This document shows, piece by piece, positions 2,117 to 7,784 of a stretch of 64,000 nt of DNA. The notes below the pieces were generated by a model. The model did no database searches. It was not told where the DNA came from and saw only the letters and a program-made list of their open reading frames with translations. This stretch comes from a phage. The translations under genes and the position numbers were made by a program. Position 1 is the first letter of the stretch. Every line of letters begins with the position of its first letter. The stretch lies in the sequence record PQ478073.1; one strand, given 5' to 3'.

Positions 2117-2725
2117 ATGAAAAGACTATGGCTTGAGGTAGTACAAGCAGTAATGCTTCTGATGTTGATAAATTTTCCAGCCAGTGCTGGTGTTGAAAGT
2201 AAAAATGTGATAAAGTACAATCCTGAAACACGTAATGTATATTTCATCTCAGATATTACGGATGGGTCACTAAAGCGTATGATGGAGTTGTATGATAAAG
2301 AACACTATGATACCATTACCATCACATCGCCAGGTGGTGATTTTGATGCTGGGATTAAAATGGCAAACTTCGTTAGAGACAATGGTATAAATTTAATTGT
2401 TTCTAGGTATTGCAACTCAGCATGTACTGTGGTATTCTTCAGTGTAGCTTTTGAAAAGCGATACATGATAAATCGCTCAGTACTGGGACTTCATAACATT
2501 TCTATTAAAAGTAATGTTAAAGACGGTGATAATTCTTTTGTATCAGTTAGGCAGCTATCAACTTTTACTGAAGAAATGGCAACTAAAGTAGGTTTTCTAT
2601 TTACACTATATTCTGCAAATGGAATTCCACCAGACGTTCTATATAAAGTTAGCCGTTCGCGTGGTGAAGATGTTGTAATATTAACAAAACCAGAACTGGT
2701 TTTTTACGGTTCAGTCAAACAATAA
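2117..2725 (+). CDS. secreted ClpP/SppA-like (S14/S49) serine peptidase-like protein
   Basis: N-terminal signal peptide; TITSPGGDFDAG and NSAC motifs resembling the ClpP family SPGG and catalytic Ser regions. Confidence 0.45.
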   Translation: MKRLWLEVVQAVMLLMLINFPASAGVESKNVIKYNPETRNVYFISDITDGSLKRMMELYDKEHYDTITITSPGGDFDAGIKMANFVRDNGINLIVSRYCNSACTVVFFSVAFEKRYMINRSVLGLHNISIKSNVKDGDNSFVSVRQLSTFTEEMATKVGFLFTLYSANGIPPDVLYKVSRSRGEDVVILTKPELVFYGSVKQ

Positions 2726-2795
2726 AAATAATTAAAATAACAGGATGATTATGATGTACTTCCTTTGTTATTAATTATATTGAGATTATATAACT

Positions 2796-3056
2796 ATGAC
2801 AAACATCCAAAATTTGACATCTATTATTTTTTATGCTACAGTAGTGATGTATATTACTGTACTTTTCCTAACAGTTTTCATTTACAAAGATTACAAAAAT
2901 GGCTTTATTGATAACACAACAATGAAGTTCAATTCAAAGTTTGAAGCAATAATTTATTATGTTCTGGCAACATCATATTTGGTGTGTCTAATGTTATTAG
3001 GTACATTGATTTATATTTTATATACAACTTTATTTGCAATTGGAGCTATTTTATGA
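2796..3056 (+). CDS. small membrane protein (2 predicted TM helices)
   Basis: hydrophobic segments; stop overlaps next start (ATGA). Confidence 0.4.
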   Translation: MTNIQNLTSIIFYATVVMYITVLFLTVFIYKDYKNGFIDNTTMKFNSKFEAIIYYVLATSYLVCLMLLGTLIYILYTTLFAIGAIL

Positions 3057-3649
3057 CATGTATCATTGCACACACTGATGGTGTAACTTCTTTTATTGCA
3101 GGGGACAAACTGGGAAGTAACGGGTTCACAAAGTCCGTTCAAACTGAGCCTAAAGTATTTGAGAAAGAATTCATTAAAATCAATGATGATGCTGGTTTGA
3201 CCCGTACAAAAGAAATTATGGCGATTGGTTACACCACATCATTCCGTATGGGTCAACTTCTTACTTACAGTTTGAATCTACCACAGCAAGATGCAAATGA
3301 GACGTTTCCACAGTACTTAGTACTGAAAGTTATTCCTATTATTCGTCAAATGTTCAAAGAGGAATGGGGTTCTCGTGATCCTTCACAAGAAGTAGGTGGT
3401 GGACAGTTCATCATTCTTCACAATCATACAATTTATGAAGTTCAAGAAGATTTTTCAGTTCTTCAACCGAAAACACGAATCACCGCCGTAGGTAGCGGAA
3501 CATATCATGCTATTGCAGCAATGCAAGCATATATTGAAGTTGAAAATGAATCAAAAGTGCCACTACATGAACGCATCAAATCAATTTTTAAAATTGTCAG
3601 TGATAATGTAACTAGTGTAAGTGCCGAGTTTGATGTTTTAAAGTATTAA
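3053..3649 (+). CDS. Ntn-hydrolase, proteasome/HslV-like peptidase
   Basis: Met-Thr N-terminus (MTCIIAHTDG) and AVGSGTYHAIAAMQAY resembling HslV IAIGSGGPYAQAAARA; start re-placed at in-frame ATG 3053. Confidence 0.55.
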   Translation: MTCIIAHTDGVTSFIAGDKLGSNGFTKSVQTEPKVFEKEFIKINDDAGLTRTKEIMAIGYTTSFRMGQLLTYSLNLPQQDANETFPQYLVLKVIPIIRQMFKEEWGSRDPSQEVGGGQFIILHNHTIYEVQEDFSVLQPKTRITAVGSGTYHAIAAMQAYIEVENESKVPLHERIKSIFKIVSDNVTSVSAEFDVLKY

Positions 3650-3667
3650 AATTATAAGAGAGAATAG

Positions 3668-3862
3668 ATGATGGCATACACAATTTATGAATGGGTTTTG
3701 AGTTTTTTTATAGTTTTTTCTATTGTTGTAATTTATAACAATGCTAAATGCTTATACAGGGACTTGAAATCCAATGGTTATCACAAAGATAATAATTTTA
3801 TGTATGCCTATCATATTGGAATAATTCTGTTATTATCAATATATTTAATTGGTTTTTCATAA
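3668..3862 (+). CDS. small membrane protein
   Basis: two hydrophobic helices. Confidence 0.4.
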   Translation: MMAYTIYEWVLSFFIVFSIVVIYNNAKCLYRDLKSNGYHKDNNFMYAYHIGIILLLSIYLIGFS

Positions 3863-3871
3863 GGATTGAAT

Positions 3872-4624
3872 ATGATATCAGAAAAATTTATAAGTAATGA
3901 AGGTAAAAAAAGATTACTGATTATATCTGGTGCAGGACTTTCTGTTGAAAGTGGTATGGAACCTTTTCGATTTGATGATGGTTTGTGGGATACATTTAAA
4001 ATCAATGATGTATGTAACATTGCTAGTTTAACTACGAAATATCACGTTGTTCATTCCTTCTATAATACATTACGTGTAAAATTGGGACAATGCGAACCCA
4101 ATGCAATGCATTATTTTATAAAATCGTTAGAAGATCAATATGGTGATTGCTTCCTTCATATGACTTCTAACATGGATGATCTTTATACTCGTATCGGTGG
4201 TCATGAGCTTAAACTTCATGGAAACTTGTGCGAAGTTATTGAAAATTATAGTATCAATTCCGATGATTATAATGTTATTAACTGCGGATACGAACCATAC
4301 ATACCAAAACATGATGTTTTTGCTAAACCAAATGTAGTAATGATTGGAGAATATCATCGTTATGTTGATGGTATTCGCTTACCAATTTACGAAGAACGAA
4401 ATAATGTGTTGAAATCTCTTAATGAAAATGATACAGTTATTGTAATTGGTAGTAGCGATACAGTACTAGTATGGTCGAGATTAGCAGCAGCATTACCATG
4501 TTATAGTGTTAATGTTAACATTCGTAAAAATGATAATGATTTTTTGTTTAATGAAAAAGTTATCAAGCCAGCAACCAAAGCAATACCACATCTAGAGACT
4601 ATAATTAAGGAACGTATGAAATGA
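3872..4624 (+). CDS. Sir2 (sirtuin) family NAD-dependent protein
   Basis: ISGAGLSVESGMEPFR, TSNMDDL, LKLHGNL (catalytic His), PNVVMIGE motifs; ATG 3872 with AAGGA RBS. Confidence 0.8.
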   Translation: MISEKFISNEGKKRLLIISGAGLSVESGMEPFRFDDGLWDTFKINDVCNIASLTTKYHVVHSFYNTLRVKLGQCEPNAMHYFIKSLEDQYGDCFLHMTSNMDDLYTRIGGHELKLHGNLCEVIENYSINSDDYNVINCGYEPYIPKHDVFAKPNVVMIGEYHRYVDGIRLPIYEERNNVLKSLNENDTVIVIGSSDTVLVWSRLAAALPCYSVNVNIRKNDNDFLFNEKVIKPATKAIPHLETIIKERMK

Positions 4625-5172
4625 GTGTTAAAGAAGTTCCCTTTGGTGAATATGGCTCACGTGCAAATTTTGTATTTTGTTATTTCTTTGCAAGAAAATG
4701 TAACCCTTACAAAAACTATGAGTTGAATGATATACCAGAAGTAAATTTAGTTTTACTACAATTACGATGGGATGGTCTTCTTGGTGGATGTGGTGGAACC
4801 GTAGAAAGTACTGATATCTCACTAGAAGATGCGTTGCGTCGTGAAGTTCAAGAAGAAATGGATTACAATATTTTTGTTTCCCATCTTCGACCACTCAAAA
4901 CTTTTGAAATTTACCCAGGTGCAAACAGTCATAGTTTTAGCTATGAAGTAAGCTATGACGAGTTGAAACACATTAGAGATGGATACACTAATGCTAAACA
5001 TGCGAGTGCTGAAGTTGCTGGTGTAAATTTATGTCATATTTCTCGTTATTCTAAGGGACAAAATCGAGAAGCGGGATATAATAATCTTATGACACAGAAC
5101 TTCATTGGTACAGCAAAACAAGAATTGGAGTATCTGGTTCAAAAAGAAAACTTACTAATTAGTTATCTATAG
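4621..5172 (+). CDS. Nudix-like hydrolase
   Basis: approximate Nudix box GGTVE...LRREVQEEM; ATGA coupling to Sir2 gene. Confidence 0.5.
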   Translation: MSVKEVPFGEYGSRANFVFCYFFARKCNPYKNYELNDIPEVNLVLLQLRWDGLLGGCGGTVESTDISLEDALRREVQEEMDYNIFVSHLRPLKTFEIYPGANSHSFSYEVSYDELKHIRDGYTNAKHASAEVAGVNLCHISRYSKGQNREAGYNNLMTQNFIGTAKQELEYLVQKENLLISYL

Positions 5173-5181
5173 GAGTTTAAC

Positions 5182-5502
5182 ATGTCTTACGCAATGTTTT
5201 TGGATGATATTCGTGATGCAAATCTATATTATCCAAACCAAGATATGGTGGTATGTCGTGACTTTAAAAGTGCATGTGAATATGTTATTGAAAATGGAAT
5301 TCCAGCATTTGTATCATTCGACCATGACTTGGGTGATGTGAGCGAAGACGAAAAGACTGGATATTCTTTTGCTAAGTTTCTTATTGATTATATGTTTGAT
5401 AATAATATTAAAGAACCGTTTGAGTACTTTGTTCACAGTAGTAATCCTGTTGGTAAAATTAATATTGAAACATACTTAAACAATGGATTTAACGCATTAT
5501 GA
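5182..5502 (+). CDS. small receiver-like (REC-like) domain protein, function unknown
   Basis: MFLDDIRD ... SFDHDLG acidic-pocket-like motifs; AGGAG RBS. Confidence 0.4.
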   Translation: MSYAMFLDDIRDANLYYPNQDMVVCRDFKSACEYVIENGIPAFVSFDHDLGDVSEDEKTGYSFAKFLIDYMFDNNIKEPFEYFVHSSNPVGKINIETYLNNGFNAL

Positions 5503-5801
5503 TTCAAACACACATCAAAAGTCTTATTTGTACTGTTCTGTTAGGTGCAGGAGTTCTTTGGTTCGGACAGTATCACGAGAACACTAAGCGTACCAACATT
5601 CACTACAATACCGCAGAAGTTGTTAGTTTAGGACAATGTAGCGAGTCCAAATGTTCATTCATGTATAAAACCCAAAGTGGTGAAGTACGTAATGGACTAT
5701 CAAGAGAACCAGTTTCAATTGGTCAACTTGTTTACCAGGAGTGCTGGGAAGAAAAGGTTCGAGGTTCACGTTGCTATGTTGAATACGAACCAAATATGTA
5801 A
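5499..5801 (+). CDS. hypothetical protein with N-terminal signal/TM segment
   Basis: ATGA-coupled ORF, hydrophobic N-terminus. Confidence 0.45.
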   Translation: MIQTHIKSLICTVLLGAGVLWFGQYHENTKRTNIHYNTAEVVSLGQCSESKCSFMYKTQSGEVRNGLSREPVSIGQLVYQECWEEKVRGSRCYVEYEPNM

Positions 5802-5861
5802 TAATCCGAGTCAATAACATTAGTCGAGTACAAGGATGTACTCATAACTCAAGGATGTTTT

Positions 5862-7301
5862 ATGAAAAAATATACAATTGACACAAACGTACTACTATCT
5901 GACCCTAATGCATCTATTGCTTTTGATGGTGCTGCAATCATTCTACCATTTACAGTACTGGAAGAATTAGATTCGATTAAGAGTCGTAATGTAGATGTTT
6001 CACGCGATGCTCGTGTTGCTATTCGTAACATTGAAGCAATTATTGCAGATGCATCACATGACGAGATTAGTAGTACTGGTGTTAATATTGCTGATGTTCA
6101 TACCAATATGAATCCTGATAGCAAATTGTTTGTTATTACAAACGAAGAAGCTGAGGCACTAATTCGTACTAAAGGTACAGAAGAGAAAGTTCAAACCCTT
6201 CTCAAAAGTACTGTACCTGATGATAAAATCATTCTGGTAGCTTTAGCAACAGAATCAGTACTGGTAACTCGTGATATCAACATGCGTATCAAAGCACTAA
6301 GTTATGGTGTCGAGGTACAAGATTATCGCCATGATATTGTTATTGGTGATAGTGATTTGATTCACATTGGTCAACACCATCTGGAAATCAATTTTTGGGA
6401 AGTATACAGCAACTTAACCAATACTAATATTCAATCCGAACAAGTTGGTCGTCGTTTGTATCATTACATTTCTAAAAGCTTGATTGAACATCTGCTTCCA
6501 CAAAATCTATGCATCGGTGATTATCTATATGATGATGCTGACGTATTATTTGTGTACGAAGGACAATCAGCAATTGAGGAAGATGATGGAACACTAACAC
6601 CAGAAGATATTTTGGTATTCCAAGACATTGGACAATCAGTGGCTTTACGTGCTAAAGTATGGGATATTAAAGCAAAGAATATCCAACAAGCACTCGCCAT
6701 CAACAGTATTCTCGATCCTGATGTACATCTAACAGTACTACTAGGTTCTGCTGGTACTGGTAAAACACTAATTACAATTGCTACTGCATTAGAATTAGTA
6801 CTGGAAAAACGTAAATACGACCGAATCATCTTCTCTAAAACTCAAGACTCACAGTTTGAAGATATTGGTTTCTTGCCAGGTTCAGAAGCAGAAAAAGTGA
6901 TTCCATTCTGTGGAGCCGCGATTGATGCGTTAGAGTTTCTTCATAAAGATGATGCAAACCCACAAGGTAGTATTGAAGAGATTATGAAACGTAATGTTAT
7001 TCAATTTAAAGCACTAAACTTTGTACGTGGACGTTCATTCACCAACACTATTCTAGTAGTTGATGAATTCCAAAACATTACACCTGCACAAGCAAAAACC
7101 ATCTTGACACGAGCAGGGTTAAACTGTAAAGTAGTAATTATGGGTAACTTGAGTCAGATTGACAGTAAGTTTATTAGTCCTGTTAACAGTGGTTTGACAT
7201 ATGTAACTGAGAAGTTTAAAGACTGGGCAGGTTGTCGTGTCATCGAACTAGAAGGTGTTGTTCGTTCACCACTGGCTGAATTTGCTGAAGAAAATATGTA
7301 A
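5862..7301 (+). CDS. phoH: PhoH-like ATPase with N-terminal PIN domain
   Basis: PIN-like N-terminus (IDTNVLL), Walker A GSAGTGKT, Walker B LVVDEFQN. Confidence 0.85.
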   Translation: MKKYTIDTNVLLSDPNASIAFDGAAIILPFTVLEELDSIKSRNVDVSRDARVAIRNIEAIIADASHDEISSTGVNIADVHTNMNPDSKLFVITNEEAEALIRTKGTEEKVQTLLKSTVPDDKIILVALATESVLVTRDINMRIKALSYGVEVQDYRHDIVIGDSDLIHIGQHHLEINFWEVYSNLTNTNIQSEQVGRRLYHYISKSLIEHLLPQNLCIGDYLYDDADVLFVYEGQSAIEEDDGTLTPEDILVFQDIGQSVALRAKVWDIKAKNIQQALAINSILDPDVHLTVLLGSAGTGKTLITIATALELVLEKRKYDRIIFSKTQDSQFEDIGFLPGSEAEKVIPFCGAAIDALEFLHKDDANPQGSIEEIMKRNVIQFKALNFVRGRSFTNTILVVDEFQNITPAQAKTILTRAGLNCKVVIMGNLSQIDSKFISPVNSGLTYVTEKFKDWAGCRVIELEGVVRSPLAEFAEENM

Positions 7302-7309
7302 TATTGTAT

Positions 7310-7338
7310 GGGACATTATGTCCCATACATGATATAAT
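7310..7338 (+). promoter_or_regulatory. early-type sigma70 promoter (GGGACA N17 TGaTATAAT) overlapped by 11-bp perfect inverted repeat (7305-7329)
   Basis: consensus hexamers; palindrome TGTATGGGACA tta TGTCCCATACA. Confidence 0.6.
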
Positions 7339-7369
7339 GTTGTTATCATAATACAGAAGGAGATATAAA

Positions 7370-7558
7370 ATGGCTAAACAACCTAAGAAACAAGAACCAG
7401 TAGCAAAAGTTAAGAAAGAGAAAGTTATTCAATCCAAAGAACAACGTATGTACGAACAACGTAAGAGTGAAACCCTATCCGGTCTACAAGCTCTACGCAA
7501 GCAAGGTGTACTAACTCGTGCACAGTACCGTGAACTAGTAGCTCAGAAAGGTTTTTGA
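7370..7558 (+). CDS. small basic protein
   Basis: AAGGAG RBS, K/R-rich 62 aa. Confidence 0.5.
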   Translation: MAKQPKKQEPVAKVKKEKVIQSKEQRMYEQRKSETLSGLQALRKQGVLTRAQYRELVAQKGF

Positions 7559-7662
7559 TTCATTTGAAGCAATATTGTGGAGTTCTTAATAAATACTTTT
7601 ATAAGAATAATAATACTTTTTATTAAATTAAAAAGAACTCCATGTGTTATTTCAGTTTTTCG

Positions 7663-7688
7663 TCCCTGTCTTTTGGCAGGGATTTTTT
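7663..7688 (+). terminator. intrinsic terminator
   Basis: 8-bp stem, TTTT loop, T6 run. Confidence 0.6.
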
Positions 7689-7784
7689 ATATCTATATCT
7701 TGACAAAAGGAACAAATCATGAGAACATGTATTAAAGGAAGAATGACTTTCCATTAGGTTATTTTAACTTAAAGGAGATTTCAT

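Follow-up and report, generated by a model that had tools for sequence, protein, structure and literature searches.

A conserved Sir2–Nudix–cREC gene cassette in a Rak2-like jumbo coliphage and its possible role in NAD-dependent RNA-end repair

The stretch of phage DNA analysed here (the window, 64,000 nucleotides of sequence record PQ478073.1) carries a cassette of three genes, encoding a sirtuin (Sir2), a Nudix hydrolase and a small cREC (cyclic-phosphate processing receiver) protein, which is real and conserved. We adopt, tentatively and with a confidence that falls a little short of even, the published prediction that the genes of the cassette are expressed together as a module that consumes NAD+, acts on phosphorylated RNA ends and disposes of the ADP-ribose by-product. 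The phage is an Asteriusvirus (Rak2-like) jumbo coliphage with 99.3% identity to phage 121Q and E. coli as its host, so that the comparison with T4 made in an earlier note on this sequence was misplaced; GenBank annotation (121Q) already names the Sir2 and Nudix genes. The features of the locus are as follows.

3872..4624, + strand: Sir2 (sirtuin), 250 aa, of a phage-specific clade without zinc cysteines
4621..4624, + strand: ATGA, the Nudix ATG overlapping the Sir2 TGA (sequence reading)
4621..5172, + strand: NUDT16-like Nudix hydrolase, 183 aa (by Pfam and PDB matches)
5172..5175, + strand: GGAG Shine-Dalgarno-like motif, 6 nt 5' of the cREC ATG (sequence reading)
5182..5502, + strand: cREC protein, 106 aa (Pfam PF20274)
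5499..5801, + strand: conserved 100-aa protein with a hydrophobic segment at its N-terminus, ATGA-coupled to cREC (PHROG)
5862..7301, + strand: PIN + PhoH protein (PhoH2-type RNA helicase/nuclease), a conserved neighbour 3' of the cassette (Pfam)
7662..7683, + strand: terminator-like hairpin, the first on this strand 3' of the cassette (terminator prediction)

The Sir2, Nudix and REC-like assignments, made earlier from the letters and translations only, are borne out by Pfam and PHROG at levels far beyond chance. The sirtuin matches Pfam SIR2 (PF02146; E=3.6e-20, 73.1 bits, cut-off 24), the second protein matches both NUDIX (E 7e-7) and the Nudt16-like family PF22327 (E=1.3e-18, 67.9 bits, cut-off 27), and the third matches cREC_REC (PF20274; E=1.8e-22, 80.3 bits, cut-off 27), with PHROG matches of 2e-77, 8e-91 and 3e-30, respectively, that agree with these calls. 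Minus-strand reading frames within the cassette interval reach at most 88 aa. The proposed translational coupling of Sir2 and Nudix through the ATGA is present as described; the 9-nt spacer between Nudix and cREC contains the GGAG motif, the MSY start of cREC is kept among homologues, and a second ATGA overlap, at 5499-5502, joins cREC to a fourth reading frame that lay outside the trio of the earlier note (phrog_14661, ‘membrane protein’, 3.9e-44). No terminator-like site was predicted on the + strand from 2339 to 7662. The PIN-PhoH gene matches Pfam PIN_4 (8e-20) and PhoH (7e-44), as well as the NCBIfam model ‘RNA 5'-3' helicase PhoH2’ at 2.6e-44, under the family cut-off.

All 15 complete Rak2-like loci recovered share the order Sir2, Nudix, cREC, membrane protein, PIN/PhoH, at Sir2 identities down to 43%, and in nine Rak2-like loci Nudix and cREC form a single polypeptide, which argues for both acting on one substrate. 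The cassette genes are under purifying selection, with dN/dS values, taken against a relative with 78.8% DNA identity and with dS close to saturation, of 0.03 for Sir2, 0.14 for Nudix and 0.09 for cREC (0.13 for the fourth reading frame). Jumbo-phage genomes contain many small, unrelated genes in head-to-tail arrays, and the genes 5' of the cassette vary between lineages, as would be expected if its members were mere neighbours in an auxiliary gene block with no common pathway. However, an order that survives such divergence, two ATGA overlaps and the fusion of Nudix and cREC in nine loci make this explanation highly improbable.

The neighbourhood itself has already been described (Iyer, Burroughs, Anantharaman & Aravind 2022; Viruses 14:1977; PMC9503650). 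That study, the sole published analysis, predicted a KptA-like, NAD-dependent role in RNA-end repair; both the neighbourhood and the mechanistic prediction were therefore known, and the cassette is a rediscovery. Their configuration 1, with Serratia phage BF as its prototype, combines this sirtuin clade with Nudix, cREC and a PIN endoRNase, likewise in Rak2-like jumbo phages and with an identical gene order; in the present phage the four genes sit side by side on a single strand. The present Sir2 has a homologue in phage BF, and BF-type loci were recovered. In contrast to configuration 1, Nudix and cREC are here separate, coupled genes rather than a fusion, and a 2H (Acb1-like) gene is absent from the locus. 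We found no experimental work on phage sirtuins or cREC in the literature, cREC being experimentally uncharacterised according to PMC9503650, and neither the NARP3 paper nor the ‘NAD-jumbo phage’ paper treats the cassette. What is new here is that genes for NAMPT, an NMNAT-Nudix (NARP2) and an Acb1-like 2H protein lie upstream in relatives but not in this phage, and that the PIN-PhoH neighbour is a virion protein in phAPEC6. We also add, as judged from sequence, the placement of the sirtuin in a phage clade that lacks the zinc cysteines and has an altered TQNID motif, and that of the Nudix protein as specifically NUDT16-like.

The sirtuin carries the motifs pointed out in the earlier note (GAGxS, FR and catalytic HG) at G20-A-G-L-S24, F32-R33 and H116-G117, together with N100/D102. 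Its homologues were found in 942 of 50,697 phage records, the model phage T5 among them. Across the clade, G20/G22, S27, H61, Y64, R68, N100, D102, D103, H116 and G117 are invariant and A21/L23/S24 nearly so; FR is altered in three members, and the RaK2-lineage protein has GNG in place of GAG and no FR motif. The AF2 model (pLDDT 90.4) has the two-domain sirtuin fold, in agreement with the Sir2 assignment. E. coli CobB is its best Foldseek match (TM 0.77-0.85), the best 50 structural neighbours are all deacylase-type sirtuins, and CobB is also the best PDB match by sequence (3e-22).

Given that CobB and SIRT5 are the closest relatives by both sequence and structure, the sirtuin could be a protein lysine deacylase of the CobB kind, resetting the acylation of host or phage proteins, with the Nudix enzyme destroying O-acyl-ADP-ribose and nicotinamide being recycled where NAMPT is present. 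These class III deacylases share the GAGxS, FR, N, D and HG motifs with the phage protein, which retains the catalytic His, Asn and Asp, an FGE-type loop and a largely hydrophobic acyl-lysine pocket that includes Y64; NAMPT adjoins the cassette in relatives, and Nudix enzymes cleave O-acetyl-ADP-ribose. However, the only candidate zinc-site cysteines of this sirtuin are C120 and C138, neither of them conserved, so that the Cys4 zinc ribbon is missing. The loss is clade-wide, while classical viral sirtuins from the same search retain CxxC...CxxC, and to our knowledge zinc-ribbon cysteines are present in all characterised deacylase sirtuins. The clade also has T[S/A/T]N[V/M/I]DD in place of TQNID, only the Gln of TQN being replaced. 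Unlike CobB and SIRT5, the phage sirtuin has a conserved Cys48-Asn49, jumbo-phage members have an insertion C-terminal to the FGE loop, and the Tyr of the anion-binding Y-x-x-R is kept with its Arg displaced by one position. Scores against the NCBIfam CobB equivalogs (93, 86 and 85 bits) fall far under the cut-offs of 318, 243 and 320. A deacylase would also leave cREC and the Nudix-cREC fusion without a role, and the genes for an RNA ligase, a kinase and HAD_SAK beside the clade in other lineages without an explanation; on balance we consider it rather unlikely. In class III sirtuins the position of Y64/R68 binds anionic acyl groups, and the loss of the zinc ribbon, the replaced Gln and the invariant Y64/R68 together fit a non-canonical anionic substrate.

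Defence-system Sir2 NADases also lack the zinc ribbon. Those of ThsA, DSR1/DSR2, Sir2-HerA and SPARSA belong to the same superfamily, but the phage sirtuin (250 aa) consists of one domain and lacks both a sensor and a partner ATPase, and PADLOC defence models gave zero matches to it. With its structural neighbours being of deacylase type, we rejected an identity as a defence-type NADase.

The second protein has an intact Nudix box (G58-G59...R74-E75-x2-E78-E79) that is nearly superimposable with that of NUDT16/X29, its best PDB matches (2.8e-12), R74-E75-V-Q-E78-E79 aligning with R75-E76-L-R-E79-E80 of NUDT16. The phosphate- and metal-binding Arg50, Asp52 and Glu136 of NUDT16 correspond to R49, D51 and the Glu of ‘AEVAG’ in the phage enzyme. 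In contrast, the GFP motif by which NUDT16 reads the purine O6 (6-oxopurine selection, IDP specificity) is lost, GFPGG having become GGCGG, and Gln170 is aligned to a Glu; the phage-borne enzyme further differs in the cREC fusion of its relatives. PADLOC returned one marginal match (E=0.0023), and a word-indexed protein search returned 13 close relatives and no distant genomic contexts.

The closest characterised relatives of this enzyme, X29 and NUDT16, are decapping enzymes that also remove NAD, FAD and dpCoA caps. The cassette could accordingly write and erase RNA 5' ends or serve their decay, with the Nudix enzyme decapping NAD-, ADPr- or triphosphate-ended RNA for PIN-PhoH2 and the sirtuin ADP-ribosylating RNA or protein. 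PIN-PhoH2 is the invariant neighbour and its phAPEC6 orthologue, gp341c, is a member of the virion proteome, which indicates that it may act early. However, the base-recognition motif of NUDT16 is GGC here, cREC has no evident role in such a module, T5-like and rV5-like phages have the Sir2 clade but not this Nudix, and we know of no sirtuin that modifies RNA ends. We therefore regard this alternative as improbable.

The third protein has a receiver fold with conserved aspartates and an acidic pocket, but differs from CheY-like receivers in having four strands, no beta-5 Lys, and an invariant H48-D49 (a D-x-D pair as in HAD phosphatases) along with R11 and N88. No histidine kinase was found among the neighbours at this locus or at 47 other cREC loci, and no output domain lies close to cREC here. 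A classical two-component receiver was rejected on the absence of a kinase, the four strands and the missing beta-5 Lys. The protein is instead a predicted cyclic phosphodiesterase, and PADLOC gave no match to it. Stand-alone, diverse cREC genes most commonly neighbour metallophosphoesterases and CCA-adding enzymes, a ligase also being found, and a distant homologue in Malaciobacter adjoins a metallophosphoesterase (the one informative context among three examined).

The suggestion of the earlier note that the phage manipulates host NAD+/ADP-ribose signalling or counters NAD-depleting defences finds some support in relatives. In 15 related jumbo-phage loci the genes for NAMPT and NMNAT-Nudix (NARP2) lie upstream of Sir2, at most 6 kb away, and 14 of these loci also have an Acb1-family 2H gene directly upstream; experiments have shown that NARP2, comprising NAMPT and NMNAT, overcomes defences that deplete NAD (Osterman et al. 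2024), and Acb1 is an anti-CBASS protein. Nudix and cREC could then degrade ADP-ribose-derived or cyclic-phosphate signals, or clear the ADPR left by host NADases, alongside these genes, and both families have been proposed as degraders of soluble ADPr signals (Iyer et al. 2021). However, the cassette itself holds no NAD+-synthesising enzyme, and in this phage it stands apart from such genes: tblastn found no NAMPT or NMNAT in the 64-kb window, no Acb1-like 2H gene in the window or in the adjacent 121Q sequence (positions 210.9-231.2 kb), and no NAMPT in that same 121Q interval, the annotation of 161-280.5 kb of 121Q likewise containing none. A motif-seeded scan for NAMPT loci in IMG/VR included every other Rak2-like contig but not that of 121Q. 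NAMPT, NMNAT and Acb1-like genes are thus probably missing from the whole genome of this phage. In addition, known anti-defence families gave no match to the cassette, a sirtuin that consumes NAD+ fits poorly with NAD+ conservation, and the model leaves the sirtuin without a role. The link to NAD+/ADP-ribose chemistry appears well founded, with the NAD-binding and catalytic residues of the sirtuin kept, a Nudix enzyme of NUDT16 type and a third protein identified as cREC; a counter-defence purpose is one possible reading, but with no defence-type Sir2 match and a published analysis that favours NAD-dependent RNA-end repair (PMC9503650), we hold it to be unlikely.

The RNA-end repair reading can be set out in steps. 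From the gene structure, folds, catalytic motifs, conservation, Nudix-cREC fusion and gene neighbourhoods, all observed directly, we infer the substrates and reactions of all the cassette enzymes. The sirtuin would bind NAD+, release nicotinamide and transfer ADP-ribose to the 2'-phosphate of a healed RNA break, the same transfer that the unrelated enzyme Tpt1/KptA carries out; its catalytic His would then aid attack of the ADP-ribose 2''-OH on the phosphate, leaving an RNA 2'-OH and ADP-ribose 1'',2''-cyclic phosphate. The cREC protein, whose receiver fold is truncated and holds a DD metal site along with the D-x-D pair, may open or remove cyclic or terminal phosphates, either on this by-product or on RNA 2',3'-cyclic ends. 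The NUDT16-like Nudix would split the ADP-ribose pyrophosphate into AMP and ribose phosphate, and the adjacent PIN-PhoH2 helicase/nuclease could act on the same RNA pool. The proposed logic is that of the Tpt1/KptA pathway and of Appr>p disposal by a 2H cyclic phosphodiesterase, a macro phosphatase and an ADPR Nudix: an RNA 2'-phosphate is taken off at the expense of NAD+, after which the ring in the ADP-ribose by-product is opened and its pyrophosphate cut. Here, however, the transferase would be a Rossmann-fold sirtuin rather than an ART-fold enzyme and the cyclic phosphodiesterase a receiver-fold rather than a 2H protein, in chemistry that is predicted for the phage proteins.

Several lines of evidence favour RNA-end repair. 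The NAD site and catalytic His of the sirtuin, the Nudix box with the phosphate-binding residues of NUDT16 and the acidic pocket of cREC are intact; the gene order is conserved, the genes are coupled in translation, a terminator within the cassette is not predicted and dN/dS is low. The zinc-less sirtuin clade lies beside RNA-end enzymes in two other phage lineages: an rV5-like locus combines it with an Rnl1 RNA ligase, a P-loop kinase, a metallophosphoesterase and cREC, and in T5 it adjoins HAD_SAK_2. The metallophosphoesterase and CCA-adding neighbours of cREC elsewhere fit the same picture, as do the Rnl1 and Pnkp encoded 15-18 kb upstream of the cassette in this phage, which also encodes a CCA-adding enzyme and a weak macro domain. 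KptA was found in 98 phage records and, among the matches listed (40 of the 98 for KptA and 45 of the 942 for Sir2), the two shared no phage group, so that their carriers appear to be separate. Finally, the same model was reached independently by Iyer et al. (2022).

Other observations weaken it. The nearest relatives of the sirtuin are protein deacylases, whose acyl-lysine pocket it largely keeps, and the RaK2-lineage protein departs from the GAG and FR motifs. The phage has its own T4-type Pnkp and Rnl1, which should heal and seal breaks with no 2'-phosphate as a product, PIN nucleases yield 3'-OH ends and not cyclic phosphates, KptA is already present in the host, and we know of no RNA ligase of T5's own. 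Sir2 and Nudix are not in the 25 most frequent Pfam families of nearest neighbours across 47 diverse phage cREC loci, and in relatives the cassette lies beside NARP2 and the Acb1-like gene, which serve counter-defence and not repair. The argument is also partly circular, since the RNA-repair labels of cREC and HAD_SAK stem from the same school of contextual inference.

Could the sirtuin cassette and the NARP2 genes of relatives form one closed NAD+ cycle, repairing RNA 2'-phosphates with neither a drain on NAD+ nor a residue of ADPr signals? In such a cycle the sirtuin would spend NAD+ on RNA 2'-phosphate removal, a chemistry new to sirtuins, Nudix-cREC would convert the ADP-ribose cyclic phosphate to AMP and ribose bisphosphate, feeding PRPP, and NAMPT and NMNAT would remake NAD+ out of the freed nicotinamide; we consider this extension very unlikely. 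If the predicted activity of the cassette holds true, this would be the first sirtuin with a nucleic-acid phosphate as its target, cREC would be the first receiver-fold domain with an enzymatic role beyond two-component signalling, and the cassette would add another phage link between RNA repair and the NAD+ economy that bacterial defences target.

The Sir2-Nudix-cREC cassette is a real pattern, not a chance one, and was already known from annotation and comparative-genomic prediction. The earlier note had described three plus-strand ORFs at 3872-5502, with sirtuin motifs and an ATGA overlap joining the first two, and had called their products Sir2, Nudix-like and receiver-like. Our analysis agrees on each of these points. 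All three proteins score well over the curated Pfam cut-offs, and PHROGs concur. The features of this locus, and those of a cluster farther along the window, are as follows.

3872-4624, plus strand: Sir2 ORF, 250 aa, with G20AGLS24, F32R33 and H116G117 (Pfam SIR2, 3.6e-20)
4621-4624, plus strand: ATGA overlap of the Sir2 TGA with the Nudix ATG, read from the sequence
4621-5172, plus strand: Nudix ORF, 183 aa (Pfam Nudt16-like, 1.3e-18; NUDIX, 7e-7)
5172-5175, plus strand: GGAG in the spacer before cREC, read from the sequence
5182-5502, plus strand: cREC ORF, 106 aa, with a 9-nt spacer 5' of the gene (Pfam cREC_REC, cyclic-phosphate processing receiver domain, 1.8e-22)
5499-5502, plus strand: second ATGA overlap, of cREC with the 100-aa ORF, read from the sequence
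5499-5801, plus strand: 100-aa ORF, ATGA-coupled to cREC (phrog_14661)
5862-7301, plus strand: PIN-PhoH gene (PhoH2-like RNA helicase/nuclease), downstream of the 100-aa ORF
42111-43223: CCA-adding tRNA nucleotidyltransferase
43332-43733: second Nudix, NudE-like
44564-45040: macro-like protein, annotated as a macro domain (weak match, E=0.009, under the cut-off)

No terminator-like site was found on the plus strand between 2339 and 7662. For cREC, the RefSeq record of phage 121Q uses an internal Met5 (5194); the longer version, beginning at 5182, has GGAG ahead of it, opens with an MSYxMF segment kept in homologues, and is the one annotated for phAPEC6 and vB_Ec-M-J. Against a relative with 78.8% DNA identity, dN/dS comes to 0.03 (Sir2), 0.14 (Nudix), 0.09 (cREC), 0.13 (small ORF) and 0.04 (PIN-PhoH), values that are approximate because dS is near saturation. 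The 100-aa ORF has a hydrophobic N-terminal segment and several cysteines toward its C-terminal part, and matches no Pfam family. A 64-aa hydrophobic ORF (3668-3862) lies directly before Sir2, and close by on the same upstream side are genes for a ClpP-like (2117-2725) and an HslV-like (2984-3649) protease.

The earlier note had set the cassette against the T4 gene set, a frame that does not suit this phage, an Asteriusvirus and not, in the usual sense, a relative of T4. The region has 99.3% identity to Escherichia phage 121Q (Asteriusvirus, 348.5 kb) and 78-99% to 34 further records of jumbo coliphages and Salmonella phages. In 121Q the genes are named 476 Sir2, 477 nudix hydrolase, 478 hypothetical, 479 membrane protein and 480 PhoH-like, so two of the three cassette domains are already publicly annotated. 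The window carries 1348 bp extra relative to 121Q somewhere between about 7300 and 42100, the coordinate offset shifting from 216303 to 214955. By 121Q annotation, the 42111-45040 cluster also has a glutaredoxin. The same annotation places genes for a DNA ligase and a metallophosphoesterase some 7 kb before the cassette, and a T4-type Rnl1 RNA ligase and polynucleotide kinase (121Q 201797-204968; 40798-43969 in our 121Q locus, L077) 15-18 kb upstream, outside the window.

By sequence, the nearest solved relative of the sirtuin is E. coli CobB (3e-22), followed by archaeal Sir2 and SIRT5. Structure prediction, a check the earlier note had proposed, gave an AlphaFold model of pLDDT 90.4 that superposes best on CobB (TM 0.77-0.85), and all of its 50 top structural matches are deacylase-type sirtuins. 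These results bear on a reading in which the protein is a CobB-like deacylase with disposal of O-acyl-ADPR alongside, which we consider rather unlikely. By its family scores the sirtuin is not a CobB orthologue, since it reaches 85-93 bits against NCBIfam cut-offs of 243-320. The only cysteines close to the zinc site, C120 and C138, are both unconserved. Across the clade TQNID becomes T[S/A/T]N[V/M/I]DD, Cys48-Asn49 is a conserved pair, and H61, Y64 and R68 do not vary. This zinc-less signature, the altered TQNID and the conserved residues are common to sirtuins of T5-like and rV5-like phages, while other viral sirtuins in the same scan retain CxxC...CxxC and TQNxD. In the RaK2 lineage (7998-8738 in L005, the Klebsiella phage RaK2 locus; P0011, P0013), GNG replaces GAG and the FR motif is gone, with Asn, Asp and His kept; catalysis may therefore be altered or lost, though the gene is retained.

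The nearest solved proteins to the Nudix are Xenopus X29 (2.8e-12) and human NUDT16, and its Nudix box, GGTVESTDISLEDALRREVQEE, is almost superimposable on the NUDT16 equivalent. It retains the equivalents of NUDT16 Arg50, Asp52 and Glu136, which hold phosphate and metal (PMC4485890), and lacks the GFP motif and Gln170 of 6-oxopurine selection. It is very probably an active NDP-X pyrophosphatase; sequence alone does not specify its substrate. The published substrates of NUDT16 include IDP, ADP-ribose and its conjugates, and metabolite RNA caps. Another reading, to which we give a low probability, is a module that decaps or ADP-ribosylates RNA 5' ends and acts with PIN-PhoH. In phAPEC6, mass spectrometry showed the PIN-PhoH orthologue, gp341c, to be part of the virion proteome, and PhoH is one of the RaK2 virion proteins that the CBB paper mentions; PIN-PhoH may therefore be injected with the phage DNA. 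Sir2, Nudix and cREC (gp344c-342c) are unnamed in the phAPEC6 text, and gp342c-346c are absent from the portion of its virion table that we covered.

Across an IMG/VR profile scan with the sirtuin as query (69 loci), the order Sir2, Nudix, cREC, 100-aa protein, PIN-PhoH is invariant in 15/15 complete Rak2-like jumbo loci, at sirtuin identities down to 43%; a 16th, ending just past Sir2, was left out of the count. Nudix and cREC form one protein of ~300 aa in nine of these 15 (Pfam Nudt16-like 19-180, cREC 195-294). One jumbo-phage sub-group has an extra ORF of ~123 aa between Sir2 and Nudix (L004 8750-9121; also L006-L008), with no Pfam match. It is very improbable that the genes are mere neighbours. 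cREC itself is frequent in viral contigs (at least 566 matches), and in 47 dereplicated non-Rak2 cREC loci its commonest neighbours are metallophosphoesterases and CCA-adding enzymes, Sir2 and Nudix both falling outside the 25 most frequent neighbour families.

The earlier note had guessed at NAD+/ADP-ribose manipulation or counter-defence, which stands as one among several readings. In 15 Rak2-like loci (L004-L018), but not in that of the window phage, the 6 kb upstream of Sir2 include genes for NAMPT and a bifunctional NMNAT-Nudix, the enzyme pair of the NARP2 pathway for NAD+ reconstitution. An Acb1-family 2H phosphoesterase is immediately 5' of Sir2 in 14 of them (in L018 the three genes are at 3827-4939, 5560-7041 and 7304-7747). 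These neighbours suggest counter-defence, possibly by degradation of ADPr-type immune signals, which we regard as quite unlikely for the cassette. However, tblastn found none of the three in the window or in 121Q 210.9-231.2 kb, the 121Q annotation lists none across 161-280.5 kb, and an IMG/VR NAMPT scan recovered all other Rak2-like contigs but not 121Q. The sirtuin matched none of the defence-system Sir2 models.

Iyer et al. 2022 (PMC9503650) described this gene neighbourhood and proposed that the sirtuin is KptA-like, stripping 2'-phosphates from RNA using NAD+, with partner enzymes that open a cyclic phosphate or process ADP-ribose cyclic phosphate, and described cREC as experimentally uncharacterised. 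Our literature search found no later experimental work on the cassette, and neither the NARP3 nor the "NAD-jumbo phage" paper addresses it. We adopt this RNA-repair model as the most likely mechanism, with confidence short of even. We favour it because it alone gives every component a role, because it explains the Nudix-cREC fusion, and because, in three lineages of phages, sirtuins of this clade have RNA-end enzymes as neighbours. In an rV5-like locus, metallophosphoesterase, P-loop kinase, Rnl1-type RNA ligase and cREC precede Sir2, and in T5 HAD_SAK_2 comes after Sir2. In the sirtuin reaction, a substrate oxygen attacks C1' of NAD+, and the His-activated ribose 2'-OH then attacks; with phosphate replacing the amide this would be the Tpt1 reaction, which would make the model chemically natural. 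Among phage records, 98 contain a homologue of E. coli KptA, with genome sizes near 130 kb or of 250-307 kb, and 942 contain the sirtuin, in T5-like, rV5-like and Rak2-like size classes; no phage group is common to both among the matches listed, a separation that fits the model weakly. Against it, the sirtuin is most closely related to protein deacylases, the host carries its own KptA, the NARP2 and Acb1 neighbours in relatives point to counter-defence, and the phage's T4-type Pnkp/Rnl1 route should yield no 2'-phosphates. Its support is also partly circular, because some functional labels stem from the same contextual inference.

To this our analysis adds a defined signature for the sirtuin clade that lacks the zinc cysteines, a NUDT16-type identity for the Nudix, a high-confidence predicted model of cREC as a truncated receiver, the NARP2 and Acb1-like genes that flank the cassette in relatives and are missing in the 121Q lineage, and the virion association of the adjacent PIN-PhoH. 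The biochemistry of the cassette is a testable question, and one previously posed in print.
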